56,318 nucleotides of DNA from Nitrososphaeraceae archaeon (GTDB lineage: Archaea > Thermoproteota > Nitrososphaeria > Nitrososphaerales > Nitrososphaeraceae): positions 1 to 56,318 of the forward strand of contig JBIOZG010000011.1 of NCBI GenBank assembly GCA_044870765.1, in the 5' to 3' direction. The position numbers were made by a program, and so were the translations under genes. Every line of letters starts with the position of its first letter. Within the stretch, counting starts at the first letter, position 1. The notes under the pieces were generated by a model, which did not search any database, was not told the origin of the DNA, and saw nothing but the letters and a program-made list of their open reading frames with translations. This document shows, piece after piece, positions 18,244-56,318 of the stretch.

Positions 18244-19218
18244 TTGGATAACAGTAATACAGAAGAAACAGATAGTTCCAGTTCTGCGGATTCAGATCCG
18301 CCTAGTTCAAAAGAAAACAAGTCTTTTCCTGGTCTAGTGAATGAAGGAATTGTCGCCGGTCAACGAATAGCGAAGATTTCTGTAATAACACTAGTCGGAA
18401 TAGGGATTGTAGAACTAATTATGGGTCACATTAGCGGGAGTGTAGTGGCCACTGCCGATGGAGTAGATTCCATGTCCGATGCTATGATATCTCTTATTGT
18501 ATTGATAGGTTTGACATTTGCCCGCAGACCCGCCGATAGGAAGTTCCATTTTGGATATCATAAGGTAGAAAGCTTTGCTGCACTTATCGCTGCAATGGGA
18601 ATGATTGCCATAGGAACATTCATAGTTTATCACTCTTACGAAGGACTCATCAACCCTAAAGAAATCCAACAGCCTATTGCTACGATGATTGTGCTTGGAA
18701 TTGCCGGTGCCATTTCACTGCACAGGGCTTTTCAGATGCGCCGCATAGCCAACAAATATAATTTGCTTTCTTTGAAGACAGACGCAAAGAATTCTATCAA
18801 AGATGGTTCTGCGTCTGTTTTAGGTTTCTTAAGCGTATTGATAGCAACACAATTTGGATTTCTACAAGCCGATGCTATTGGAGGGCTGGTAATTGCCGGA
18901 TTTATATTCTCTGTAGCATATGTTTCATTAAAACAGTCGTCGCTAATACTCGTTGATGCTTGGCAAAATCCAGTGAGTACACAATATATGAAAAAACTAG
19001 TCGAGCAAAAATTCAATGGTGATGTGAACGTAAGGTCTATCAAACTCCGTCAGACAGGTGCGATTTCACGGGCTGAGATCCATCTCGAAATAGATGGCAG
19101 CAAACCACTGAATGAAGTAGAAATGTTGTTACTAAATACAGAGATGACAGTGAAATCAAGTTTTCCTGGTATGGGTGCGGTTGTAGTCATTCCTCATTCC
19201 AAACTCAGAAAATTCTGA
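18244..19218 (+). CDS. Cation diffusion facilitator (FieF-like) transporter
   Basis: SGSVVATADGVDSMSD, PAD..HFGY.KVE, DA.N...D, 6 TM helices and a C-terminal dimerisation domain. Confidence 0.9.
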   Translation: MDNSNTEETDSSSSADSDPPSSKENKSFPGLVNEGIVAGQRIAKISVITLVGIGIVELIMGHISGSVVATADGVDSMSDAMISLIVLIGLTFARRPADRKFHFGYHKVESFAALIAAMGMIAIGTFIVYHSYEGLINPKEIQQPIATMIVLGIAGAISLHRAFQMRRIANKYNLLSLKTDAKNSIKDGSASVLGFLSVLIATQFGFLQADAIGGLVIAGFIFSVAYVSLKQSSLILVDAWQNPVSTQYMKKLVEQKFNGDVNVRSIKLRQTGAISRAEIHLEIDGSKPLNEVEMLLLNTEMTVKSSFPGMGAVVVIPHSKLRKF

Positions 19219-20486: not shown

Positions 20487-21398
20487 ATGAAAAGAATTTT
20501 ACATTTTTCGATACCGCTAATGTTATTGCTAGTTGGATCTATATTGAATGCAAACAATGTATTAGGCCATACTTTTTCTGGAGATGAAAGTGCATCTTTC
20601 CTGGCCGGTGTTGAAATGACAAAAATAGAATTAAAAATGGCAGCAGACCAAGCTGTCTCTAATGCTACTAATGCCAAAGAACATGCTGACCATTTAACTG
20701 AGCACATTACAGCAAACGATACAAAAGAAATTAAGGAAAGAAATTCGCGAGTGGCTGACGAACTTAATAAAACTTTGACTGATTTTGTTAATGCGATCGA
20801 ATCCAGTTCTCCAGCACAATCTGATGTTAATACCAAGGCTAGTAATATCAATGATATACTGTCTGAAGTTGTGAGCGCCAGAATAGATAAAGAACAACTG
20901 GATAATGTTACCGTTAAGGCTCTAGTTGTAAATGATTTGGTAGGGGAAGGTCTAGAGCATTACGGTAGTGCACTCGGTATGGCGGAAGAGGGTCATGATG
21001 AGAACGAAAGTAATACCGCTTCCTCAGAGCATACAGAAAACCAGAATAATGAAACAGCGAGCATTGTCGATGTGGCTGACTATCAAAGTGCGCAAGCAGC
21101 TGTCTCTCGAGCAATAGAACTATACAATGAAATTAAACCCGCGGGTGACTCGAACTCCAGTCAGTTGGCAGACTCTTTGAATACACTAAAAAGCAAGATA
21201 GATAGCAAGAGTGCCTTTGATGAAATTGACAAAGTAGTGGATGATAAAATTTCGCCTTTACTTAGTGACATGTTCAAGTTAAAGTTGGCAGAGGAAGAAG
21301 AGCATTCTGAAGGTGATGATCATGGTCAAGAAGATGATCATGGGGAAGAAGGACATGGTTCGTCCCAAAATGAAACTCACGACGCAAATACTGATTAA
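20487..21398 (+). CDS. Secreted helical-bundle protein with His/acidic-rich loop and tail
   Basis: Signal peptide ending VLG-H; helical; tail EEEEHSEGDDHGQEDDHGEEGHG; paralogous to 22034..23122. Confidence 0.8.
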   Translation: MKRILHFSIPLMLLLVGSILNANNVLGHTFSGDESASFLAGVEMTKIELKMAADQAVSNATNAKEHADHLTEHITANDTKEIKERNSRVADELNKTLTDFVNAIESSSPAQSDVNTKASNINDILSEVVSARIDKEQLDNVTVKALVVNDLVGEGLEHYGSALGMAEEGHDENESNTASSEHTENQNNETASIVDVADYQSAQAAVSRAIELYNEIKPAGDSNSSQLADSLNTLKSKIDSKSAFDEIDKVVDDKISPLLSDMFKLKLAEEEEHSEGDDHGQEDDHGEEGHGSSQNETHDANTD

Positions 21399-21916
21399 TG
21401 AATGCATTCCCTCACTTCCACATTATTTTGTTGCTTGGTTTTGTTCTGATCCTAAAGGTTCCTTTGAGTACAAGTGGCTTAATTTTTGAAAATAATCCTT
21501 TTTATGGATTAAACAATGATGCAATTAGATCTATCGAATCCATAACAGATGACAATTTGATAAGGGTCAAATTGGAATATGCCCCTTCAGCAATTCAAAT
21601 TGGTTCTCCAGAATTTTTTAGAGCAACTTTATTTCATAATGAAAAAAATGAAATAGTTTTGCATGCAGACACAGATATAGCAATATCTAAAAATGGTAAG
21701 GAACTTTATAAAGCATCAAGTGAATTTTCTCAGCCCTTCGTTCACACTCCAAATGGAATAGTACTTTCATCTTACAAATTTCCAGATTCAGGACAATATA
21801 TTATTACAGCGAAAATATTAGGAATAAACTTCATGCCGGTTAATCCAAAACAAGTTGATTTTGTAGTTAATGTTACTGAATCAAATGACAAATACAACAT
21901 AGAGATAGGCAAATGA
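21398..21916 (+). CDS. Secreted beta-sandwich hypothetical protein
   Basis: TAATG overlap with upstream gene; signal peptide; H.D.DI.I, HTPNG, F..SG.Y.I Ig-like pattern. Confidence 0.7.
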   Translation: MNAFPHFHIILLLGFVLILKVPLSTSGLIFENNPFYGLNNDAIRSIESITDDNLIRVKLEYAPSAIQIGSPEFFRATLFHNEKNEIVLHADTDIAISKNGKELYKASSEFSQPFVHTPNGIVLSSYKFPDSGQYIITAKILGINFMPVNPKQVDFVVNVTESNDKYNIEIGK

Positions 21917-22033
21917 ATATGTCACGGTCAAAGACTCATGACACTGATGCAACCGTTTTTTATGGCGCTGGAGCCCTTTTCTAAAATCTATTAGTTTTAA
22001 ATTACTTGCTCATCATTATGGGAGTATAGTTAA

Positions 22034-23122
22034 ATGAAGCGAAATTTAGGTGGAACTCAAAAAAAGCTGATTCCTTTTTTAGCTATTTGCTTTGGCCTGT
22101 TTTTTTCGAATATCGTGTATAATTCTGATGATGCAAAAGTATTGGGACATCTTTTCACCAGAGACCAAACAGGAACATTCGTTTCCATTATAGACCAAGT
22201 GCAAACAGAATTAGAGCTAGTCGCAGCAAACTTGGTAAACAATAACGTCTCACTTGCTGAAAATCATGCATCAAAGGCTTCTTCACTCTTACCAAGAGTA
22301 ATTGGAGAAATAGGAGAAGACAACCCTCAACTGGTAGGCGAGCTGATGAGATCTGTGTTTGGCATGGAAAACATATCATCAACTACATACAGTAAATCGC
22401 AAAATATCAGTACACTTGTCAATAATCTAAATGAAAAACTAGATAATGCAAAAATTATTAGGATGGCACAGGTGCAACCAACTTCTAACTTTTTGGACAA
22501 AGTTACAAACCTTCTAGGAGGTTTATTTGGCGGGGACACCGGAGAACCGTCAAGCGAACATGTTCAGAATTCAAGGATAGAAGCATTAGCTTTTGCAGAG
22601 CTTATGGACGCAGTGTTGGTAAATTATGGTAAAGCGTACAATGTAGGATTTGATATGACAAATATGTCAAATATGATAATGGCGCCCAGCAACAGCAACA
22701 CTGGTTCTATAGCCATAAGCAATACTGTGAAAAGTAATAATTCTGATACAGGTAACACGAATATCAACATGAACATACATATGAACACGAATATGAACAC
22801 GAATATGGATTCGATGAATAATTCGACCAGTCCTATGCCGGAACACATGGACGAAATGGATAACGGTTACCAATTGAGTCACACTGCGGACTATCAGACT
22901 GCCCAATTACTGGCAAAAAGGGGACAAGATTTCTTTAATTCTGATCTCAGACACATGGCAAATAATAACAAAGTAATTTTTGTCAATAACTTGGAAAAAG
23001 GTCTGAAGCACCTAAACGATTCAATTGAAAACAAAGGGCCTCCTACAGAAATTATGATGATAGTGCATACTGAAATTCATCCAAACCTGTTGGAAGGCTT
23101 TAATTTGGAGTTGCGTAAATAA
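22034..23122 (+). CDS. Secreted helical-bundle protein with Met/Asn-rich insertion
   Basis: VLG-HLF after the signal peptide; ADYQTAQ motif shared with 20487..21398; MNIHMNTNMNTNMDSM...MPEHMDEM loop. Confidence 0.8.
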   Translation: MKRNLGGTQKKLIPFLAICFGLFFSNIVYNSDDAKVLGHLFTRDQTGTFVSIIDQVQTELELVAANLVNNNVSLAENHASKASSLLPRVIGEIGEDNPQLVGELMRSVFGMENISSTTYSKSQNISTLVNNLNEKLDNAKIIRMAQVQPTSNFLDKVTNLLGGLFGGDTGEPSSEHVQNSRIEALAFAELMDAVLVNYGKAYNVGFDMTNMSNMIMAPSNSNTGSIAISNTVKSNNSDTGNTNINMNIHMNTNMNTNMDSMNNSTSPMPEHMDEMDNGYQLSHTADYQTAQLLAKRGQDFFNSDLRHMANNNKVIFVNNLEKGLKHLNDSIENKGPPTEIMMIVHTEIHPNLLEGFNLELRK

Positions 23123-23123
23123 A

Positions 23124-23429
23124 ATGAATAATATGTTTTCTGATGAGAATCTTGGTAAGGCCATCGATTTTGTAAACCCTAAGGTCAACAGCTGGGCAAA
23201 GGACTTGTTTGGAAGCTTTGAGCAATTGAATTTGACTAGACCTCAGAAGGAGCTAATTCAGATTTTGACAGCTGAAACTCTCCTGTACAATACCGTTATG
23301 TCAAATGAAGAAATCATCGCAATCTTGTCTGACATAATACGAAATATAGCAACCCGCCACGCATATGGAATGTTCCTTGACTGGGGTAAGAGAGCCTCAT
23401 TATTCAAGGCACCTGATAAAGAAAAATGA
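23124..23429 (+). CDS. Hypothetical protein
   Basis: ATG one base after the upstream stop; 101 aa helical ORF. Confidence 0.65.
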   Translation: MNNMFSDENLGKAIDFVNPKVNSWAKDLFGSFEQLNLTRPQKELIQILTAETLLYNTVMSNEEIIAILSDIIRNIATRHAYGMFLDWGKRASLFKAPDKEK

Positions 23430-23461
23430 ACAAATTATTTCCTTTGAAAACAGTGTTGTTG

Positions 23462-23557
23462 TTATGTAACCGCGTTTTGGGCATACAAGTTGTTTGCTGA
23501 TGTAGTAAAAACAAGCATCAAAATTGTTGCTCCAATTATGATTAATTCTTTATTCAT
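23462..23557 (-). pseudogene. Signal-peptide-only ORF (31 aa), probable truncated secreted-protein gene
   Basis: MNKELIIIGATILMLVFTTSANNLYAQNAVT*; a typical LYA-Q signal peptide with a stop five residues after cleavage. Confidence 0.4.
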
Positions 23558-23638
23558 GAGCTTTAGATGCTCAATTTTTACTTAAGGATTATAGATTCAT
23601 CATACATTTTCGGTTAGTCTTAAAAAATTTCAAATACA

Positions 23639-24085
23639 ATGGATTCAAAGATATCATCTATGGCTCTAGGACAAAAACTCTTTGAAGAAGTTGGTAAAAT
23701 AACGAGTTTCAAAGTGACAAAAGTGCATCCACTTGAAGGAGTGACAACAGAAGTCAGCTTTATGTCAGACATCAAAGGTATAGAAAGATTTCCAAGTGGC
23801 AAAAATCTTGCTTCTGGTACGATGACTAGATATCCACACGGAATAATCGATGCGGTTTGGCACGGTAATTTAACGACCCAAAATGCGCAGGAGTTTATGT
23901 GGTGGGCGCATGAGAAAAGCAAAGTTACTGAAGATGGTAAAATCAGAGGGCTAAATCTCGTGACAGGTTTTACGAACTCACAAAAATTAACTTGGATGAA
24001 CAATATAATCATCGTAGTGGAACTAGATGGTTCTGTGTACTCGGAAGAATTCACTGCAACTGCTTATGAATGGAATTCCACATGA
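23639..24085 (+). CDS. Hypothetical beta-barrel-like protein
   Basis: 148 aa ORF with protein-like composition ending AYEW; overlapping minus-strand ORF looks like its shadow. Confidence 0.7.
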   Translation: MDSKISSMALGQKLFEEVGKITSFKVTKVHPLEGVTTEVSFMSDIKGIERFPSGKNLASGTMTRYPHGIIDAVWHGNLTTQNAQEFMWWAHEKSKVTEDGKIRGLNLVTGFTNSQKLTWMNNIIIVVELDGSVYSEEFTATAYEWNST

Positions 24086-24427
24086 TAACTTTCAGCGAGT
24101 CCTTTATTATGCAATAAATACAATTGTAGTTTATTTATTGTTAGACCCAGTGGTTTGTGAATCATTTTTGACATAATTTTTGGATACGGAAGTGGTAATG
24201 GATATTAAAAAATGAATACGGAATAAATTTAATTTCACCACTAGAAACTGTCTTGGTTGGACAATTGCACTTCAGTTAACGGTTCTTTAAAGGAATATTT
24301 TGTACCTCTATTATAGCATTAATGTTTGAAATTCCTTCCATTTGAATTAGCAAAAGAGTTTATTCAAACTTTAAAAATAAAAATGTAATAGGCTTTTAAA
24401 GACCGTTAATGTATAGTTGCAGCAATA

Positions 24428-24543
24428 AAATTAACTGTAGACTTCTGTCACAAATTAACTGTAGACTTATACATTAAAAACATTGGCGTGTAGACTTCCG
24501 CCACAAATTAATAGTAGATACACAGTAGACACACAAAACATTG
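24428..24543. repeat. Non-coding cluster of short direct repeats (AAATTAACTGTAGACTT x2; GTAGA core x5)
   Basis: 17-mer at 24428 and 24452; degenerate copy at 24489-24518; AAAACATTG at 24477 and 24535. Confidence 0.75.
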
Positions 24544-24660
24544 ACATTAAGCAGTAGTGATACAATGCATTGTCAACTTCCAATCTTATATAGCAACTAA
24601 TCTTTCGACTATACTGAATTGTTATTTTTCAGAGTTTGTGTACTCATAATGGCTTTTTAC

Positions 24661-25256
24661 ATATGACGACTTTTGCAAATATGACGACTTTTGCAGCAAT
24701 GATGCCGCCTTTATCATTATTAATAGGAATAATGTGTCCATCTAAGGGAATCCCATGTTCAAAGTCTAATTCCTGAAGAGACCATTGTATAGATTATTGC
24801 TTTTATTCTCCTGTCAGGATATTCACAAATTTTTTGAATTTCTTCTAAGGTTGGAGCTCGGTCGTTGGCTGCCATACTTGCACGGGGCAATCCTCTTGTT
24901 ATCCTTTTCCAAGGTATCACAATATCAGACATTTCACAAAATAATTTCAGTGGCTTCACAAAATTTTTTAGCGTTGATGCTGTAATCTCTCCAGTCTCCA
25001 CGCGATTCTTCTGGAATTGCAAGAACTCTACTATTTGATTAACGACCTAGCTTGAAGGTGGTTCGTTTCTTGATTTATTAACAAAGTTATTGCAGCGTTC
25101 ACCAAGGTCTAACTTGATATCAAAATTTATGAAATCAAAAAATCTTTTGAGTCTTCTTTCGTAGTACTTTCTTGTCAGTTCATTCCTTATTGAGTATTTG
25201 AACATGTTATACGGATTTGAAAAGTCTAGCCCATCTTGATGTTGCGTTCTTAGCAT
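24661..25256 (-). pseudogene. Tyrosine recombinase/integrase pseudogene downstream of tRNA-Pro
   Basis: ORFs 25047..25331 and 24759..25022 are in one frame separated by TAG. A TGA follows GIRL, then a frameshift, then HIIPI..GGIIAAKVVI ending at an 18-bp tandem duplication (24661-24695). NDRAPTLEEIQKICEYPDRRIK...SSGIR aligns with the intact integrase at 50814. Confidence 0.85.
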
Positions 25257-25306
25257 GTTTCTATAAGTATATGAAAGGGGGACTAAATAAAGGGACAAGA
25301 TTGATT

Positions 25307-25418
25307 TGGGGCCAGTGGGATTTGAACCCACGACCGCCAGCGCCCCAGGCCAATACCTCAGCGAGATTAAGTAATTTCAACAGAGATGGTATCCTTGACC
25401 AAGCTAGACGATGGCCCC
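25307..25418 (-). tRNA. tRNA-Pro(GGG) with 36-nt non-canonical intron at 29/30 (25351-25386)
   Basis: Acceptor GGGGCCA/TGGCCCC, T-arm GTGGG-TTCAAAT-CCCAC. Removing the intron restores CCAGC-CTGGGGC-GCTGG. Strict BHB: AGG-ATAC-CA|T-CTC...GAG-GTAT-TG|G-CCT. Confidence 0.93.
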
Positions 25419-25596
25419 TACGACTTAGACAAATAGAGTTCTTTTTAAATGTAGTATTGCCATAAAAAGATGATTCCGATAATGACAATCTACGTTGTTT
25501 CATGACTGGTATGAGTATTGGAGTGTTTTTCGAAATTTACTACATGAACCATTTAAATTCAATTAAATAGAATATTTCTTTACCCCGCGAGAAAAA

Positions 25597-26340
25597 ATGG
25601 ATTACTCTAATTATCTCAAAACATTGTATGATTATGAAAAAAAACAAGTAGGAACAGAAGAAAAATCTATGTTGCTTAAGGTGATAAACAATGTCGATTT
25701 TTCTGCACAAATAGGATCTTACCTGAAATTGAGAGACAAGAACCAACTAGGAGATACATCAACTGTTTCCAGATTATTGGGACTCAAACTCCTCACTGAA
25801 AAGAAGGGATTGATATTAAGAGGAATGAGAAAATATCAACTGACTAGTACCGGACTTTTCTATGTGTTAACTGAAACCGTGAGTTATCCTCCCAGTCTTT
25901 TAAAGAAATACAGCGACGATCCAATTCTTAAGACTTTGTTGTTTCAGTATTTTGAAGTAGATACAATAGTATCCAGCACGGCGCGATTTTATTCTATAAT
26001 AACACAGTATCTAAAACAATGCTGTAGAACTACTCTGAACTGGCTTGAAGATACACAGAACTCTAATGAAGATCGTAAAAACAAAATGATGAACTTTCTC
26101 TTACTCGAATTGGCATTAAACGCAAAATTATTGGCGCTTAGAATAATTATTATGTATTCTGATTCAACCATACTCTCGCTTACACCAAAATCCAAAACAG
26201 GCGACCCGGATGTAGCATATTATGAACTAGAAAGTAACATGAAGGAGATTCTTGCCAAAGACAGTAAATTCATTGAACACTTACATAGAACGAATGCAGA
26301 CTTTAAGAGCGGTTATAAGGAATTTACTCATTCCGAATAA
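25597..26340 (+). CDS. Hypothetical protein, possible N-terminal winged-helix
   Basis: 247 aa ORF; VSRLLGLKLL...KYQLTSTG resembles a wHTH wing. Confidence 0.65.
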   Translation: MDYSNYLKTLYDYEKKQVGTEEKSMLLKVINNVDFSAQIGSYLKLRDKNQLGDTSTVSRLLGLKLLTEKKGLILRGMRKYQLTSTGLFYVLTETVSYPPSLLKKYSDDPILKTLLFQYFEVDTIVSSTARFYSIITQYLKQCCRTTLNWLEDTQNSNEDRKNKMMNFLLLELALNAKLLALRIIIMYSDSTILSLTPKSKTGDPDVAYYELESNMKEILAKDSKFIEHLHRTNADFKSGYKEFTHSE

Positions 26341-49583: not shown

Positions 49584-49850
49584 TCATCTGTCTTTGTATA
49601 TTTAATTCATATTAATGTGATGAAATTTCCAAATTCTATGCAGTTGAATGCAGGATGTCTTGACCAATTGAAGTGTATTTAGGGACAATAATGAAGTTAG
49701 ATAGCATATGATCAAGAAAATATAGCAAGAAACTGCTTACTAGAGCCATGATTATTGTAATCAAAATCAACAACAATACATTTCGTGTCTGCCGCAATGT
49801 TATACTGTTACAAACTCTGTTTGTTTTTATTATTTAAATCTAATTGAGTT

Positions 49851-50405
49851 CTAATTCAACTTCCACGGAATGTCATTTCGTTTTTGTCGTTTATTGGTCA
49901 CTCTTGCAAGAACAAAGAATAGATCTGACAATCTATTTAGATATGTGAGGATTTGCTGACTTATTTTCTGTTCTTTTGCAAGTGCCACTGCAGATGTTTC
50001 AGCGCGTCTTACGACAGTTCTGCAAATGTGTAATAAAGATGATTCAATAGTTCCTCCCGGAAGTATGAAATATGTTATTGATGAGAGCTCGTCTTCGAAA
50101 TTATCAATATATTTTTCAATATTAGAGATCATCTCTTCTTTAACTAGTAATTTGTTTTCTTTCAAACTGCTGGGATTTGCCAATTCTGCCCCCAGGACGA
50201 ATAAATCCTGTTGAATACTAACTAGTATTTCTTTTATGTCAGTAAAAATTGAATTGCTTTCAATATTGGAAATCAAGTATCCTATATGAGAATTTGCTTC
50301 ATCCACTTCTCCATATGCAATTATTCTCAAGTTGGATTTCGAAACGCGCGAACCATCTATTAAGCCAGTTACTCCTTTGTCGCCAGTTTTAGTATAAATT
50401 TTCAC
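49851..50405 (-). CDS. Cob(I)alamin adenosyltransferase, PduO type
   Basis: KIYTKTGD.G.T, YG.VDE.NS, FILPGG, RTVVRRAE, YLNRLSD. Confidence 0.95.
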   Translation of the reverse strand: MKIYTKTGDKGVTGLIDGSRVSKSNLRIIAYGEVDEANSHIGYLISNIESNSIFTDIKEILVSIQQDLFVLGAELANPSSLKENKLLVKEEMISNIEKYIDNFEDELSSITYFILPGGTIESSLLHICRTVVRRAETSAVALAKEQKISQQILTYLNRLSDLFFVLARVTNKRQKRNDIPWKLN

Positions 50406-50538
50406 GATAGAGATAACATAACAACATCCATAAATTACTTTTACGACAGTCTTATGACGAGAATAGTGTGATTCTTAATACACAATTGAGCGGGAGGGTG
50501 GATTGGCATATCCAATAAAAGGCCGTGGGTAGTCGAAG

Positions 50539-50700
50539 TTAGTAAGAGTGAACCTCTATCTTGTGTTCTTTTAGATATTTCTTTTTCTTAAATCGTTCGT
50601 TACATTTTTCACACTTGAAAGGCTTTTCAAATTCAATAAGGAATCTTTTTCTTCTTTCTTCAGGTGTTTCCACGACCACTTTTAAATCTGTATTATCCAT
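50539..50700 (-). CDS. C2H2 zinc-finger microprotein (53 aa; not in ORF track)
   Basis: MDNTDLKVVVETPEERRKRFLIEFEKPFKCEKCNERFKKKKYLKEHKIEVHSY*, matching F-x-C-x2-C-x3-F-x5-L-x2-H-x4-H. Confidence 0.85.
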   Translation of the reverse strand: MDNTDLKVVVETPEERRKRFLIEFEKPFKCEKCNERFKKKKYLKEHKIEVHSY

Positions 50701-50747
50701 TATAACTAGAATAAAAAACTTGTTATAGTTTATTTACTTTAAGGAAG

Positions 50748-50775
50748 ATAGTACTATAGATAAAACTAGTTTTAT
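50748..50775. promoter_or_regulatory. Two perfect palindromes in the divergent ZnF/integrase promoter
   Basis: ATAGTACTAT (50748-50757) and ATAAAACTAGTTTTAT (50760-50775). Confidence 0.45.
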
Positions 50776-50813
50776 AATTACTTCTAATATTCTAGGCTCT
50801 ACGTCTATAACGT

Positions 50814-51869
50814 ATGCAGGTACAGGAAGATGCATATTTTAACTTTGTAAACTCGATTAATTCCGACGTAACCAGAAAAAACTATGAGTATCATCTATCT
50901 CGATTCTTAAAATATTGTAATTTAGACCTCGTCTCTTTGCTTAAACTGTCTCAACAAGAATTATCTCATCTTATTATAAAGTATCTGGTTTCTCAAAAAA
51001 TATCAAGTCAATACAAGACCGTTATCATGGCCTCAATAAAACACGCTTGCGAGATGAATGATGTCATACTAAACTGGAAAAAATTAAAGAAATTTATCAA
51101 GTCAGAAAAAACAGACAATGAGACAAACGGGAAGGATAGGGGATATACTCACGAAGAAATTCAAACTATATTGGAATTTTCAGACCAGAGGTTAAAAACT
51201 GCCTTTCTAGTTTTAGCATCTACCGGTATTAGAATAGGTGCATTACAGTCGATTAGAATAGGAGATATGGAACGTATTGACAATTTGTACAAAGTAACAG
51301 TTTACAGAGGAGATAGAGAAGAATATTTTACTTTTACAACGCCGGAATGCGCTAAAGACATAGACGCTTACTTGGACTTTAGAACTAGAAGGGGGGAGAA
51401 AATTAATCAAGATTCCTATTTACTCGTAAAAAAATTCAGTTTAAAATCTAAGGTTAAGGGCTTGCAGTTTAGAGGTCGTGCATTGTGGGCGATACTTGAA
51501 GACTGTATTTCTAATTCTGGCTTGAGAGAAATAGATCATGTTAATCCATTCAAAAGAAAACAGATTCCTATCTTTCATGGATTTAGAAAATTCTATACTA
51601 AACAATTAGTAAATTCTAAACTTAATCCAGAGATAAGAGAAATGCTATTGGGCCATAAGATAGGACTAGCCAGTGCTTACTACAAACCAACTCAGGAAGA
51701 GATGTTAAACGAGTATTTGAAGGCCGTCAACTTACTAACTATAAACGAAGAGAATAGATTAAAATTAAAACTGGAACAAACAATCCAAATAGAAAAATCA
51801 CAGATTGAATCTTTGAAAGCAGACTTTGAGAAGTTTAAGAATGAAGTGTTAAGACAAAGAAAAAGATAA
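50814..51869 (+). CDS. Tyrosine recombinase / integrase
   Basis: STGIRIG (R), HGFRK (HxxR), LLGH, AYY (nucleophile); N-terminal SAM-like core-binding region; C-terminal coiled coil. Confidence 0.93.
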   Translation: MQVQEDAYFNFVNSINSDVTRKNYEYHLSRFLKYCNLDLVSLLKLSQQELSHLIIKYLVSQKISSQYKTVIMASIKHACEMNDVILNWKKLKKFIKSEKTDNETNGKDRGYTHEEIQTILEFSDQRLKTAFLVLASTGIRIGALQSIRIGDMERIDNLYKVTVYRGDREEYFTFTTPECAKDIDAYLDFRTRRGEKINQDSYLLVKKFSLKSKVKGLQFRGRALWAILEDCISNSGLREIDHVNPFKRKQIPIFHGFRKFYTKQLVNSKLNPEIREMLLGHKIGLASAYYKPTQEEMLNEYLKAVNLLTINEENRLKLKLEQTIQIEKSQIESLKADFEKFKNEVLRQRKR

Positions 51870-52622
51870 TAAATTGAATTAAAAAGTTAAATTGAGAATC
51901 TACTCTTAAATCGTTTGACTTAAAAGTTTTACCTACATAAAGAGGTATTTTTTCTTTTCCTGACTTTGCAGAAGAGGCAATTTATGGAATAAAGGGACGG
52001 CAAAAAGAATTGGTTAGTGTGGCAAAATGAGCAGATAATTTTACTTTTATCTAACATTCCCAGATCTTGGATTTTTACAATAAAACGTTTTTTATCGAAA
52101 TTATACTGAAAGTAGGAGATTTTGTTGGTCCATCTATTATGTCGCCCGCCATACTTTTTGTAGTTATACTTACAAACCAAGCGCCCGGTTTAGCAAATAA
52201 TCTGGCAACTTCTAGTTTAATATGTGTTCCAGCGGCAATACTTACTGGATTGCTCACTGTGTATGTCAATTTTGAAGAACCTGTCGCCGGGTTAAGTGAC
52301 CCGACTATTGAGCCATATCCAATTCCAGTTGTTTCAGTCACTATAGCCAAGCTAGGATCGATACACGGAGGAATAATAGGAGTAAAATCTATCTCAATTA
52401 TCCTTATCGTTCCAGTTGTTGCCGGTACGAAAAAGAAGTTAAAGGTTATGTGCGTACCTGCTATATTGGACAGTGGAACTACGTTCATACCAATCAGTAT
52501 GCCCATGACTAAGATTCTAAAAATTTCTATATAAGGTTAACCTATTCACAGATCACTCATCATATAGAAAAATCACAGATTGAATCTTTGAAGGCAGACT
52601 TTGAGAAGGTTAAGAATGGAGT
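51789..52622 (+). repeat. 59-bp direct repeat (51789-51847 and 52564-52622, 3 mismatches) duplicating the integrase 3' end
   Basis: atagaaaaatcacagattgaatctttgaaRgcagactttgagaagKttaagaatgRagt occurs twice, 775 bp apart. Confidence 0.92.
52075..52506 (-). CDS. Hypothetical beta-sandwich protein (cargo between the direct repeats)
   Basis: 143 aa beta-rich ORF (P.SNI...F.F..ATTGTI..I.I.F), no obvious signal peptide. Confidence 0.55.
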   Translation of the reverse strand: MGILIGMNVVPLSNIAGTHITFNFFFVPATTGTIRIIEIDFTPIIPPCIDPSLAIVTETTGIGYGSIVGSLNPATGSSKLTYTVSNPVSIAAGTHIKLEVARLFAKPGAWFVSITTKSMAGDIIDGPTKSPTFSIISIKNVLL

Positions 52623-52636
52623 TCTGAAACAGCGAT

Positions 52637-53878
52637 CTAAAAGGTAGATTCCATAAACGATTTAATATTGAATTCTTCAAGGAATTTTCGGACATTTTTC
52701 ATGACATGTATGGAAATTTGTCCCTCGGAGTGCTTCTTATCAGATAATAGATTACGATAGATCAGTTGATCATAATAGATCTTTATGTGGTTCCATATCA
52801 TATCCTTAAGTTCATCTCTAGCAAATGCTACCATAGCGTCTATTTCAACTTGGAATAATTCGTGGTATTTTTCTATAAATCTTTTAGTTCTGGGATCTCC
52901 CTTTTTCTCCGAATCTCCTAAGAGTTTTTTAATCACTTTAGGATCTGTAATTTTGGGAAGTTTGAATTTATCTATATGCTCATATAGTACACCAATTCTT
53001 GTGAAGTCATAAAGACCTCTTCTCTTATATTCTTCAACATCAAAACATACGTTCATGTTTTCTTTTATTATATCATCCATAGCATCCCCCGAAGGATCTA
53101 AATCACCACAATATAGAATCCGGACCTTTTTTGCTTGCTTCCATGCTTTTTTCATCCTTTGATATGTTTCCCATGAATGTCCCATGGAGTCAAAACCTCT
53201 ATTATACACAATTCTCACATCCAAACCTTCCAGTATTGATCCAAAAGTACCTACCATTGCATTTTTCTCGGTCCATAATTCTATATGATATTCTTGGTTA
53301 TGCCATTTTGGTATCAATTTTTTATATCCACTAGGAAGTTCATCAAGAAAATCTAATTTTTCTATGATATACTCTTCAGGTGTTTTATATTCGTCAATAA
53401 AATCGTCAATAATACCTCTTGTTTCATCAGAGAAACAGTCAACTACTAGTACCTCGTTCATATCTATAACGTATTTCTTAAGTTTTTCTTCAAAATAGTT
53501 ACCTAAATCGCGATATGCAATTATAGGATTATCATACGATGAATACCTACTTTTTTTATATACTTTCAAAAGGTTGTATTCAGAAAGCCTTTTAAAATGC
53601 TCGTCAGTCATTACTTTTCCCCTTAAATTTTCAATATTCGCTCTCTTTAAAATTACATATCGTTTCCTACACTTCGCTGTATATCCGCTTAAATATGTAT
53701 AATCACTTTGTACGTTTTCTAAAATTTTACGTGATATGAGTATGTAAAATATTGTCCTAAGGGTTGGTTTGAATCCTGCTTTATGGAATTCTATTAACTC
53801 TTTTTTTATAATTGGTAGTACATCTGTTTTCCAACTGCGATTTTTTTTCTTTGGTTTACTATCGAGAGTTACAGACAT
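52637..53878 (-). CDS. Topo VI-A/Spo11-like protein (wHTH + TOPRIM; Mini-A type)
   Basis: N-terminal TLRTIFY (candidate catalytic Tyr, cf. R.IYY of Topo VI-A/Spo11); TOPRIM Glu in ELWTEK; RGF.S; YCGDLDPSG (DxD); EIDA. Confidence 0.8.
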   Translation of the reverse strand: MSVTLDSKPKKKNRSWKTDVLPIIKKELIEFHKAGFKPTLRTIFYILISRKILENVQSDYTYLSGYTAKCRKRYVILKRANIENLRGKVMTDEHFKRLSEYNLLKVYKKSRYSSYDNPIIAYRDLGNYFEEKLKKYVIDMNEVLVVDCFSDETRGIIDDFIDEYKTPEEYIIEKLDFLDELPSGYKKLIPKWHNQEYHIELWTEKNAMVGTFGSILEGLDVRIVYNRGFDSMGHSWETYQRMKKAWKQAKKVRILYCGDLDPSGDAMDDIIKENMNVCFDVEEYKRRGLYDFTRIGVLYEHIDKFKLPKITDPKVIKKLLGDSEKKGDPRTKRFIEKYHELFQVEIDAMVAFARDELKDMIWNHIKIYYDQLIYRNLLSDKKHSEGQISIHVMKNVRKFLEEFNIKSFMESTF

Positions 53879-54093
53879 TTGCTAATGCAATTCCTCGTTC
53901 GGTCATCAGATAGATTCTTGTGCTTGTTACATTTAAGGCTTGGAACACTTGCGGGAGAGAGAGTGTTGCTACCTTTCTCTAAATGAAGCACATGTACATT
54001 TTAGACACGGATACCTAAGTTTCGTTCCTAACAAATGCTGATGATCCTTCCTGTCATGGCCACAAACACACAAGTTGGTTTCGGATTCCACAA

Positions 54094-54348
54094 TTGACTA
54101 AAGGCAACATAATTTTTTTATTAGTTCTCTATACCGTGACTACTTTAATTAAGAAACGTATGTTAGAACAAGATGATCCGAAAGTCGTACGAACTTGGCG
54201 CAACAATCAGGTATCAAGCACTATATTACTTTCATTACCACATGACCTAGCAAAGAAACACGGTATTGGTGTTCATACTAACCTGTTAGCAATTGACACA
54301 GATCAAGGTATTTTGTTAAAGAAACTCAACTTGGAGGGAATCGAATAA
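54094..54348 (+). CDS. AbrB/MazE/SpoVT-like DNA-binding protein (likely start ATG 54160)
   Basis: STILLSLP..LAKKHGI.....L.......GILLKKL. Confidence 0.7.
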   Translation: MTKGNIIFLLVLYTVTTLIKKRMLEQDDPKVVRTWRNNQVSSTILLSLPHDLAKKHGIGVHTNLLAIDTDQGILLKKLNLEGIE

Positions 54349-54473
54349 TGCAAGATGAATATTCCGAAATGCTAGCCAAGTTAGATGAAATTGTGAATGT
54401 ACTTAGAAGTCATAACTGTGAACACGAACATTGCTGCGTCAAGTCCCTAATAGAGGAGATCGAATTTGAATAG
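54348..54473 (+). CDS. Small Cys/His-containing protein (41 aa; not in ORF track)
   Basis: TAATG coupling to the AbrB-like gene; MQDEYSEMLAKLDEIVNVLRSHNCEHEHCCVKSLIEEIEFE*. Confidence 0.55.
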   Translation: MQDEYSEMLAKLDEIVNVLRSHNCEHEHCCVKSLIEEIEFE

Positions 54474-54490
54474 TCGGAAAGGCCCCTTGT

Positions 54491-54706
54491 TTGGAAGCCG
54501 ACCTAACCAACTTGATGGTATCCCAGACTCACGCTTTAGTTGGAGATAAAATGTGGAGCACAAAACAGGTTAATAAAAGTAATGAGATTAAGGAATATCA
54601 TCTAAAGAGACTTTACGAATTATCATTAAAATCATTAGGAGAAATTCCAAAGTTAGACGAATTAACTGAAGAACAAAATCAATGGATAAAAAAACATGGC
54701 TTTTGA
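54491..54706 (+). CDS. Small hypothetical protein (start possibly ATG 54551)
   Basis: Overlaps the start of the downstream ATPase; operon-like packing. Confidence 0.5.
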   Translation: MEADLTNLMVSQTHALVGDKMWSTKQVNKSNEIKEYHLKRLYELSLKSLGEIPKLDELTEEQNQWIKKHGF

Positions 54707-56222
54707 AAATTGGACTCTTGAAGAATGGGAAAAGATACTATTAGAAAAACGTCAAAATCTAGATGATATCATAAAAAAGAATATTCCACAATTATGGTTA
54801 TCGGTCCAACTAATAACATCGGTCAAGTGTATTTTGGATATTGCAGACTGTACTTTACCATTAATTATGATATTGTTAGGTGCTGCAAGTTCTTTGAAAA
54901 CTGTTCCTATTGAAATGTTCAGAGGACAACCCAATACATATTATACTGATAGTTTTAGTGCCAAAGCATTCGTTTCACATAGTACTGCTGTAAAGAAAGA
55001 AGATCTACCTAGTATTGACATGCTGCCAAAAATTCAGTATAAATTATTTCTAGCTCCGGAACTATCCCCATTATTCACAAAGAAAGATGATGATCTAGTT
55101 GAAATTTTGGGTATAATGACGAGAGTAGCAGATGGTAAAGGCTTTGAATCAGACACTGGTGCACATGGTCATCGTGGTTATGTTGGAGATTATATGTTTA
55201 CTATGGTAGGGGCCGCGATAGATATTCCCTATAAAGTTCACAAGTATCTAGGAAATTTAGGGCCAAAATTATATTTTTTCAGATTGCCAAGATTAATTCG
55301 AAATGATAGAGATTACTTTAACCAGTTAAAAGACAACCCATTCAATGTAAAATTTCAAAATGTAAAAACTGCATTAATAGATTATCTGCAATGGTTAGAG
55401 CGATGTCCAATAATGGAGGTAGATAAAGACAGTAAAGTTAAGAAAATAGTATGGGATTCAAACAAAGATGAAGATGAAGCACTTTACATAATCATTAAAC
55501 TTGGTAGATTATTATCGCATCTTAGAGCCGTGGTCCCTACTTGGGAAACTCACGGTAGTCAAGGAACAGATTATGCCTATGCAACTGCAATGAAAGAAGA
55601 GCCGGATAGAGCAATGGAACAACTTAGAAACATAGCAAGGGGATTCGCATTGTCTAAAGGTAGAAATTACATAACAAAAGAAGATGTATCTTTACCTATC
55701 AAGGTAGTGTTATCCACTGCGTCAATAGATAGAGTAAATATCTTTGATTTACTAATTGCTCATAAAGGTACTCTAACTACCAAATTAATAACAGAATCTC
55801 TAAGGAATTCGCCACATACAGCACATAGGATAATGACAGAATTGAAGGCCGTTGGCTTAGTTGATATGAAAGAATCTGAGATCATAACTGAAGAAAAACA
55901 AATAACATTAAGAGATGAATTTGATTGGTTTCTAACAGAAAAGTTTAGCCAACTACGTCAGGGATTCATACCTACCGACAATAGCGAAGAAATGAAGCAA
56001 CATAATCCTAGCCTTGAAGAAAAAATACCCCTTATTACCTACGGCTATAATTGTTATGAGTGTATAAGGACTAATCATGGTAGTCCGGTTTACCGGACTA
56101 ATTCGAAAAGTGATTATGAAATACATTGGATAAAATCAGGTCATGAAGGCCCGTGTTATCCTGGGATACCAGATATTGAAAAGCATGGATGGGTAGCGCA
56201 AGGTAAGGAGTGGGAGACATAA
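54696..56222 (+). CDS. MCM-related AAA+ ATPase (putative replicative helicase) with C-terminal wHTH and Zn finger
   Basis: Walker A LLGAASSLKT; degenerate Walker B FLAPE; MVGAA (sensor 1-like); PDRAMEQL (sensor 2-like); RNYITKEDV; HTH (LTTKLI...TAHRIMTELKAVGLV); CYEC...H....H. Confidence 0.7.
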   Translation: MAFENWTLEEWEKILLEKRQNLDDIIKKNIPQLWLSVQLITSVKCILDIADCTLPLIMILLGAASSLKTVPIEMFRGQPNTYYTDSFSAKAFVSHSTAVKKEDLPSIDMLPKIQYKLFLAPELSPLFTKKDDDLVEILGIMTRVADGKGFESDTGAHGHRGYVGDYMFTMVGAAIDIPYKVHKYLGNLGPKLYFFRLPRLIRNDRDYFNQLKDNPFNVKFQNVKTALIDYLQWLERCPIMEVDKDSKVKKIVWDSNKDEDEALYIIIKLGRLLSHLRAVVPTWETHGSQGTDYAYATAMKEEPDRAMEQLRNIARGFALSKGRNYITKEDVSLPIKVVLSTASIDRVNIFDLLIAHKGTLTTKLITESLRNSPHTAHRIMTELKAVGLVDMKESEIITEEKQITLRDEFDWFLTEKFSQLRQGFIPTDNSEEMKQHNPSLEEKIPLITYGYNCYECIRTNHGSPVYRTNSKSDYEIHWIKSGHEGPCYPGIPDIEKHGWVAQGKEWET

Positions 56223-56318
56223 ATGAATGTAATAGAGGGGCGTTTTTCTTCAAAGCAAAACAGGAGATCAAAATGGAATTAAGAACAATGGGAATTGGAT
56301 TCTACAGGTGAAAATCAG

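Follow-up and report, generated by a model that had tools for sequence, protein, structure and literature searches.

The window analysed here is the whole of contig C11, 56,318 nucleotides (nt) from a soil-dwelling, ammonia-oxidising Nitrososphaeraceae archaeon (assembly G000; 59 contigs, 2.0 Mb, 96.7% complete). Our subject is its last 5.8 kb, a block that runs off the contig and encodes a tyrosine integrase, a stand-alone relative of the topoisomerase VI A subunit (Topo VI-A) of the kind called Mini-A, and a small operon ending in an MCM-like AAA+ protein (Table 1; G, C and L numbers denote genomes, contigs and loci). An earlier sequence-only reading had proposed an integrated element with these genes, and the integrase, the TOPRIM protein, the AbrB-like protein, the small open reading frames (ORFs) and the AAA+ ORF are all present in the ORF list. 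So is the divergent operon: four plus-strand ORFs at 54094–56222 abut or overlap one another and run opposite to the Mini-A gene. Homologues of the block's proteins are labelled as Nitrososphaeraceae metagenome-assembled genomes (MAGs). Base composition offers no contrast that would set the block apart (GC 0.32–0.36, against 0.34–0.38 nearby), no tRNA or Rfam family was found inside the window, and scans for bacterial-type promoters and terminators were uninformative (23 found, 24.7 expected).

The block is bounded on its left by an attachment site (att). A search for repeats common to C11 and a second contig of the assembly, C15, yielded a 16-bp core, AAGGAAGATAGTACTA, at 50741–50756 of the window (attL) and at C15:7583–7598 (attR), the other att end that the sequence-only reading had suggested looking for. 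These are the only exact copies in the 2.0-Mb genome, and both coincide with synteny breakpoints; in a relative that keeps a remnant at this site (G016), the sequence past the remnant continues in C15. The right-hand copy lies 83 nt before an intron-containing tRNA gene (C15:7681–7770, L129; Rfam 45.4 bits, E 2.6e-8), which ARAGORN returns as ‘tRNA-???’ with no anticodon named and which has a TATA-like box ~30 nt upstream. The core sits between a host zinc-finger gene and this tRNA gene, within their divergent promoter region. The element starts at 50757, not at 50490 as first claimed, and the left ~250 bases of that claim are host DNA.

Within the genus, we surveyed the surroundings of the neighbouring PduO-type gene at 30 loci, and the core is present at 24 of them. 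Four are empty sites, in which the left flank, the core and the right flank known from C15 are contiguous (G005, G049, G017 and the unpublished genome G020), and 20, this genome included, are occupied, with the core followed by the integrase upstream sequence or by remnants. No copy of the core within two mismatches was found at the other six loci (L030, L033, L039, L041, L042 and L043). The closest relative by PduO protein is G020, with its empty site, and both cores are kept around shrunken remnants in G016 (2.8 kb apart) and in G024 and G015 (~0.4 kb). The C2H2 finger gene, which had been counted as part of the element, is a host gene, given its place left of attL and its presence at 29 of the 30 loci with 68–100% amino acid identity, including the empty-site loci L015, L020, L022 and L023; its Pfam zf-C2H2 match (E 2.2e-4) falls below the cut-off. 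One tRNA-adjacent site has thus been used repeatedly across this genus of soil Nitrososphaeraceae, and its occupants have then decayed.

DNA homology of 92–94% to close relatives extends from the host genes into the integrase gene, where it ends at ~51239, ~51250 or ~51383, and the integrase's N-terminal part is common to truncated remnants at the same locus in relatives. This pattern first suggested an SSV-type (‘suicidal’) integrase split into int(N) and int(C). That candidate was rejected: the break points differ between relatives, so there is no common att inside the gene, and the start codon is preceded, at a distance of 57 nt, by the true core, which leaves the gene unbroken in the integrated state.

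The empty site is also seen in the environment. Four soil runs of one study (X1–X4), possibly the source samples and not independent of one another, hold the stretch (0.79–0.95 of sampled words). When their contigs were mapped on 49800–56318, contigs in all four runs reached 50756 and then branched exactly into GACTTTTGGACAAG, which is the right flank, and therefore carry the empty junction. Contig depths are crude and include other organisms; summed over contigs, the left flank has 7.9, 10.2, 8.5 and 5.1–6.6 in X1 to X4, and the element mostly 5.0–5.9, 3.1–5.8, 3.0–4.9 and 3.3–5.2, with lower bins too and a depth of 0 in some. The occupied allele clearly coexists with the empty one in the source population: there are signs of a presence/absence polymorphism, the insertion site being still empty in part of the same population, and it is this polymorphism that accounts for the break in the assembly at this place. 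One X1 contig extends 1523 nt past 56318. Other contigs of X1–X4 match just a 60-nt piece of the integrase gene (51036–51095) and diverge on both sides, with loose ends of at most 255 nt, and a further branch occurs at 51859 in X4; both point to related integrase genes or remnants in co-occurring strains.

Table 1 Features of the right end of the window and their coordinates
Feature	Position	Strand	Basis or remark
C2H2 zinc-finger gene, 53 aa	50539–50700	-	Host gene, left of attL
attL core, AAGGAAGATAGTACTA	50741–50756		Exact 16-bp repeat shared with C15
Tyrosine integrase, 351 aa	50814–51869	+	Intact; att outside the gene
Direct repeat D1, copy 1 (integrase 3′ end)	51786–51890	+	105 nt
143-aa ORF, truncated fragment of a secreted or surface-protein gene	52075–52506	-	Likeness to a C56 protein
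Second-integrase remnant, last 29 codons and stop	52555–52641	+	tblastn; overlaps D1 copy 2 (52561–52665)
Stand-alone Topo VI-A-like protein of the Mini-A kind, 413 aa	52637–53878	-	phrog_6247, motifs, fold
Divergent intergenic region, candidate promoter/origin	53879–54156		Sequence read; function inferred
AbrB/MazE-like small putative DNA-binding protein, 84-aa ORF	54094–54348	+	Family profile
41-aa ORF	54348–54473	+	Start overlaps the AbrB-like stop
71-aa ORF, conserved companion of the MCM-like gene	54491–54706	+	Metagenome loci
MCM-like AAA+ protein, 508 aa	54696–56222	+	Fold match
Contig end	56223–56318		Element continues past the end of C11

The integrase is full length, matching Pfam PF00589 (Phage_integrase, E 5.1e-12) and phrog_1 (E 6.7e-15), and its complete catalytic set, R140, H255xxR258, H281 and Y290, is invariant in four aligned sequences. 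Its 3′ end recurs further along the block as a second copy of the repeat D1, 77% identical over 105 nt with a nearly identical core of ~55 nt. Overlapping this copy, the 29-codon remnant has 76% amino acid identity to integrase residues 323–351, and its stop codon overlaps that of the Mini-A gene. A full integrase abuts Mini-A in the same manner in G010 (L011; integrase ending at 18737, Mini-A at 18733), and in G021 the gap between the two genes is 52 nt. Between the D1 copies lies the ORF that had been read as cargo. It is present, but as a truncated internal fragment rather than a whole cargo gene: it is 41% identical over 136 aa to residues ~40–175 of a 293-aa signal-peptide protein encoded on C56, and no family was found for it in Pfam, PHROGs, NCBIfam or PADLOC. 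Because Mini-A still has the 3′ end of a second integrase beside it, two related elements have probably been combined in the block. On the simplest reading, these would once have lain in tandem, and a deletion would have taken the att in the middle together with the greater part of the second integrase.

Other integrase sequences are scattered through the genome. A second full-length paralogue (C59:22643–23686; L130 7641–8696) is 48% identical to the window integrase, and the last ~40 residues of the two are almost identical, which suggests exchange between integrase 3′ ends. N-terminal fragments at C2:41105–41386, C12:129159–129308 and C24:927–1358 (64%, 50% and 33% identical) suggest several old integration scars in G000. 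Elsewhere in the window, six ORFs of 94–362 aa without a Pfam family occupy 21398–26340, and a degenerate integrase N-terminal fragment, 28% identical to integrase residues 6–148, lies on the minus strand at 24741–25217; this segment may be another decayed integrated element.

The Mini-A protein matches phrog_6247 (‘DNA topoisomerase’, E 2e-36) and no family in Pfam or NCBIfam, and all 47 homologues found are without an assigned name. In an alignment of 28 sequences, R41 and Y45 (in PTLRTIFY), E200 and E204 (VELWTEK), and D261 and G264 (GDLDPSG) are invariant and D259 is nearly so. Published features of Mini-A are RxxY/FY, a glutamate and DxDxxG, a T2BI box of the form xWELDAL and the lack of a B subunit (PMC7671362). 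The window protein corresponds to that subfamily in its remnant of the winged-helix/5Y-CAP domain followed by Toprim, in R-x-x-F-Y, in a glutamate followed by DxDxxG, and in its location on a mobile element. Its C-terminal box, ‘FQVEIDAM’ in the window and ‘LFQVEIDALAA’ in the family consensus, resembles xWELDAL and keeps the E-x-D-A-L pattern, with V in place of W. The subfamily is ~300 aa long, whereas the window protein has 413 aa; its distant relatives mostly have 296–342 aa, with two longer (446 and 454 aa). The difference from the shorter relatives arises from a clade-specific insert of ~75–100 residues, here at ~73–145, between the N-terminal winged helix with its RTIFY motif and the TOPRIM domain.

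The AlphaFold2 model of Mini-A (pLDDT 85.6) has the same two halves. Residues 12–153, aligned apart from the Toprim half, match winged-helix domains at Z ~6. The Toprim half aligns to Topo VI-A over 147–152 residues (1d3y_A, Z 9.1, root-mean-square deviation (r.m.s.d.) 3.6, 147 aligned; 2zbk_A, Z 9.0), to JetD (7til_B, Z 9.1), to MksG (8b7f, Z 8.7–8.8) and to Spo11 (Z 7.9), and the viral fold library BFVD gave no clear match. The motif set in 28 sequences, together with the Toprim fold at Z 9.0–9.1, upholds the earlier TOPRIM/Topo VI-A-like reading. A homodimer is supported by structure prediction: the predicted pair scores 0.72, against 0.00 for the best of three controls, at a mark that 20 of 30 proteins solved as same-chain pairs and 1 of 23 solved as single chains also reach, and at least 64% of contacts are common to the runs, with a partner pLDDT of at least 78. 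This pass may mirror likeness, because dimers of Topo VI-A and Spo11 are among the solved structures. The host has its Topo VI B and A genes in tandem on C30, so Mini-A is an extra, stand-alone A-like gene, and no GHKL or Topo VI-B family was found by Pfam in the ORFs neighbouring it. The earlier inference of such a protein without a B subunit is supported by the separate B–A pair, and DNA cleavage by it is predicted from its complete set of cleavage motifs.

The MCM-like protein has an AAA+ core and lid (~1–345), a winged helix (~341–416) and a C-terminal CxxC...H...H zinc finger. Its AlphaFold2 model (pLDDT 86.8) matches MCM chains at Z 15.3–13.5, three of them over 267–290 residues (3ja8_6, Z 15.3, r.m.s.d. 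4.3, 290 aligned; the archaeal MCM 8q67_A, Z 15.0; 3f8t_A, 14.3). Foldseek gave 223 matches at E ≤ 1e-3, with MCM subunits on top (best E 7.3e-7), so the MCM-like reading holds by fold; a sequence search of solved chains gave nothing meaningful. Its Walker A motif is deviant (‘GAASSLKT’, with G62 and K68 invariant), and the C-terminal CxxC...H...H is conserved. The protein begins ~55 residues before the P-loop, and model residues 1–346 align to the AAA+ tier only (3ja8_6 residues 510–840), the N-terminal OB/zinc tier of MCM being missing; we therefore call it MCM-like, not MCM. It has more than 885 homologues, a few of them fused to Prim-Pol PF09250 (P0056, P0087), and no match in a plasmid collection. 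Stand-alone ORFs of ~60 aa, 63–65% identical to its zinc finger, occur at G010:C17:69457–69642, G016:C59:3011–3163 and G022:C10:3602–3769, the first of them ~8 kb right of the same att locus.

The genes upstream of it form a recurrent set. A metagenome scan returned five loci, and homologues of the 71-aa ORF, 53–67% identical, lie directly upstream of the MCM-like gene in all four whose MCM-like homologue is full or near full (L134–L137); the fifth, L138, matches just MCM-like residues 396–435 and has no match to the 71-aa ORF. The 41-aa ORF is 74% identical over 27 aa to one upstream of the same gene pair in L137. Homologues of the AbrB-like protein have 55–112 aa and align from residue ~22; because the family typically has 65–72 aa, translation probably starts at 54157, giving 63 aa. 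The AbrB reading stands in part: 12 of 25 family members match PF04014 at E ≤ 1 (best 1.7e-4), but the window protein does not, and the six best matches of the family profile in the PDB are all AbrB regulators at E 0.56–0.73. A single-sequence search of solved structures gave nothing meaningful, and we regard the assignment, drawn from these family profiles, as moderately supported. A homologue occupies the same position in the G021 element (L010). No significant repeats were found in the intergenic region (53879–54156), which contains a doubtful 40-aa Cys/His-rich ORF on the minus strand (53969–54091); the equivalent spacer in G021 has no ORF of at least 50 aa.

The same folds admit a very improbable alternative, a defence island in which Mini-A would be a nuclease of the JetD/MksG type and the AAA+ protein a defence ATPase, BrxL-like or other. 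The Toprim half does align to JetD and MksG as well as to Topo VI-A, and BrxL is among the AAA+ matches (8emc_A, Z 12.4); however, MCM chains outrank BrxL, the catalytic tyrosine motif RxxFY is invariant in Mini-A, and the fusions of AAA+ homologues to Prim-Pol point to replication. PADLOC, moreover, returned nothing for Mini-A and just winged-helix-type matches for the AAA+ protein (Csa3/CARF, E 4e-4 or weaker), and family scans of the window proteins found no JetABC/MksBEF or BREX partners.

Both genes are patchily distributed within the genus and accessory in nature: of the related genomes, 7 of 41 have Mini-A and 10 of 40 have the MCM-like protein. In G010 (L011), G021 (L010) and L062, the integrase and Mini-A genes lie side by side and converge. 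Among the 80 best Mini-A loci from species-representative genomes, ten, all of them thaumarchaeal MAGs, have an integrase of the same family within 10 kb. Indirect evidence that the Mini-A/MCM pair recurs comes from metagenome protein clusters, in which, in four cases, homologues of both are assigned to contigs that agree in length and source (12703, 13611, 7821 and 17955 bp). Two related elements are small. On a 4986-bp metagenome contig (L134), the 71-aa ORF and the MCM-like gene are accompanied by an integrase, and the G021 element (~7 kb) carries the integrase, Mini-A, the AbrB-like gene and, in the helicase position, a different P-loop protein of 583 aa (L010, G021:C223, 4650–6401, minus strand). 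The latter has a canonical P-loop (GGNGTGKS) and no Pfam family, and shares with the MCM-like protein of the window the C-terminal zinc finger alone; the helicase module is therefore exchangeable.

With attR placed on C15, the island comprises at least 50757–56318 and C15:1–7582, at least 13 kb in all. The C15 part encodes a helix-turn-helix (HTH) protein, a 185-aa protein, a GT1 glycosyltransferase, a Mn catalase and a DUF72 protein, among others. No homologue of C15:1–2500 was found in five close relatives except two short weak matches (G010 and G046), and neither the 5′-open HTH ORF nor the 185-aa ORF is significantly similar to the 154-aa and 360-aa proteins of G021; the membership of these two ORFs rests solely on their lying between the att copies. 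None of the five metagenome loci extends far past the MCM-like gene in a way that matches C15.

As the sequence-only reading had noted for the window, no capsid or conjugation genes are visible, and neither these nor portal, terminase or tail families were recognised in the window part or in C15:1–7582, the gap between C11 and C15 remaining. The island could be a provirus whose structural genes lie in this gap, which is of undefined size. Mini-A was first described from viruses and proviruses, and viral elements lie near 9 of 14 cellular Mini-A genes (Takahashi et al., PMC7671362). Distant homologues of the window protein occur in phage genomes (29 records, 23–29% identity among the 15 listed, including a Listeria phage and Haloarcula viruses), and in the protein atlas most neighbours of the MCM-like protein and of the AbrB-like protein bear viral labels. 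The close Mini-A clade (at least 50% identity), by contrast, is absent from IMG/VR, where the best match is 31%, and the related elements, at ~7 kb (G021) and 5 kb (L134), are too small for a tailed virus. Together with the structural families missing from both sequenced parts, these points make a provirus quite unlikely.

A close counterpart exists among the cryptic integrated elements (CIE) of Thaumarchaeota, islands with a tyrosine integrase and a replication protein of mobile genetic element (MGE) type, in which no capsid or conjugation genes are recognised (PMC6563490). The present island is likewise chromosomal, with a 16-bp direct-repeat att and an intact integrase, and its size fits the CIE range of 2.6–98 kb (median 17 kb). 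Some CIE carry an MCM or Cch-like AAA+ helicase, and NitAR2-E2 has a homologue of Cch (Krupovic et al. 2019, PMC6563490); the island has an MCM-like protein, a short form lacking the N-terminal domain. According to a figure legend of that article, CIE cargo includes plastocyanin-like and surface proteins, resembling the G016 remnants and the C15 cargo. Its main text contains the term Mini-A nowhere and mentions topoisomerases only of type IA, whereas the island has Mini-A. The MCM-like protein also shares with Cch of SCCmec and the Rep of SaPIbov1 (PDB 5dgk, 8tch) an MCM-type AAA+ core followed by a winged helix, and a setting beside an integrase on an integrative island, where those proteins are presumed to be the island's own replicative helicase or initiator. 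It differs from them in its extra C-terminal zinc finger and has no sequence-level match to any solved chain; structurally it is closer to the AAA+ of cellular MCM (Z 15) than to Cch (Z 10.9, r.m.s.d. 9.0) or SaPI Rep (Z 9.4, r.m.s.d. 8.3).

Mini-A itself has been placed on small archaeal MGE before. Homologues from ammonia-oxidising Thaumarchaeota cluster with proteins of skuldviruses, and a role as replication initiator was proposed (bioRxiv 10.1101/2021.07.29.453957). The island resembles the skuldviruses and other Asgard MGE, which are circular, in carrying Mini-A; they are viruses with capsid genes and without such a helicase, whereas here Mini-A sits on a plasmid-like element and not on a recognisable virus. 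As Mini-A coexists here with a dedicated MCM-like protein, it need not be the initiator. A 2021 review states that no archaeal Mini-A had been characterised by then (PMC8185306). A literature search for Mini-A together with Nitrososphaer- or Thaumarchae- returned only these works, whose supplementary tables might list the clade or an identical element. The gene combination, which had seemed unrecognised, is therefore less unfamiliar than first stated: it fits the CIE, publications have already mentioned Mini-A homologues of ammonia-oxidising archaea as well as MCM- or Cch-like helicases on elements of this sort, and the element is a fresh example of a class already known.

Taken together, it is likely that 50757–56318 is the left arm of a thaumarchaeal CIE or integrative plasmid-like replicon of at least 13 kb, inserted site-specifically at the 16-bp core and probably composite; recent or continuing mobility is the best reading. 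The core of the earlier inference is thereby retained: the element is plasmid-like or cryptic, brings a replication module of its own and encodes a Topo VI-A-like protein that lacks a B subunit. The finger gene, however, falls outside it, and the block looks composite.

Several observations weigh against this view. The end of C11 overlaps none of the contigs, C15 included, and the gap is not closed; the size and unity of the island are thus not established. The integrase N-terminal part is fixed at the locus in many species, with varied truncation points, and the resident integrase may be an old inhabitant and the Mini-A/MCM module may have lost its own; mobility of the present composite is inferred. 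The circular junction that the sequence-only reading had proposed to look for was not found: the contigs of X1–X4, which cannot show absence, contain no attP junction, no loose end at 50741 and no such joints. No MCM-like homologue lies within 10 kb of Mini-A at any of the 80 loci, and their pairing is therefore not obligatory. At the level of the proteins, the MCM-like protein is without the DNA-binding N-terminal domain that true MCM proteins have, and neither the sequence nor the profile of Mini-A gave a significant match to solved chains, Topo VI-A included. Alignment of the Mini-A profile with the host Top6A by hhalign is not significant (E 0.11), though the tyrosine motifs are aligned, and Foldseek, which places Methanosarcina mazei Topo VI-A first, reaches a best E of just 1.8e-3.

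Some of these points would also fit a decayed, immobile remnant at an old hot spot, in which the empty sites would be old strain differences, the integrase a leftover, and Mini-A and the MCM-like gene stranded for want of their own integrase. Integrase remnants occur at the site in 19 other genomes with varied truncation points, the block itself contains the 29 codons left of a second integrase, besides a cargo gene that is truncated, the X1–X4 contigs offer no circle junction, and the island includes ordinary-looking genes (glycosyltransferase, Mn catalase, DUF72 protein). We consider this unlikely. The resident integrase is full length with all its catalytic residues, the Mini-A and MCM-like genes are intact with conserved motifs, and a precise empty junction stands beside the occupied one in four of four runs, at depths of the same order. 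In addition, the nearest PduO relative is empty, a point that rests on the unpublished genome G020.

For the integrative replicon, which we prefer, a plausible cycle can be outlined. The integrase would excise a circle and reinsert it at the core, and the AbrB-like protein would regulate the divergent promoters. The MCM-like protein, equipped with a winged helix and a zinc finger and perhaps aided by the 71-aa protein as a partner, would recognise and melt an origin and recruit host replication proteins. A Mini-A dimer would cut and rejoin DNA with Mg2+ and Tyr45, and this cleavage could either provide the nick that starts replication or unlink and resolve daughter circles.

To our knowledge, genetic tools for ammonia-oxidising archaea are lacking. 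Small integrated elements are candidate vector backbones (Krupovic et al., PMC6563490). In a bolder reading, which we regard as doubtful, small replicons of soil Thaumarchaeota would form a family whose conserved core is the integrase–Mini-A pair and not the helicase, which is swapped between elements, and Mini-A would be a B-independent dimeric cleaving enzyme, acting as a recombinase partner or as a nicking initiator. If true, this would give Mini-A its first defined cellular role, and the small size of the replicon would suit it for use as a vector in ammonia-oxidising archaea. Because a defined 16-bp att, an intact integrase, a compact candidate replication module and a population polymorphism are all found at one locus, integration, excision and the function of Mini-A are directly testable here.

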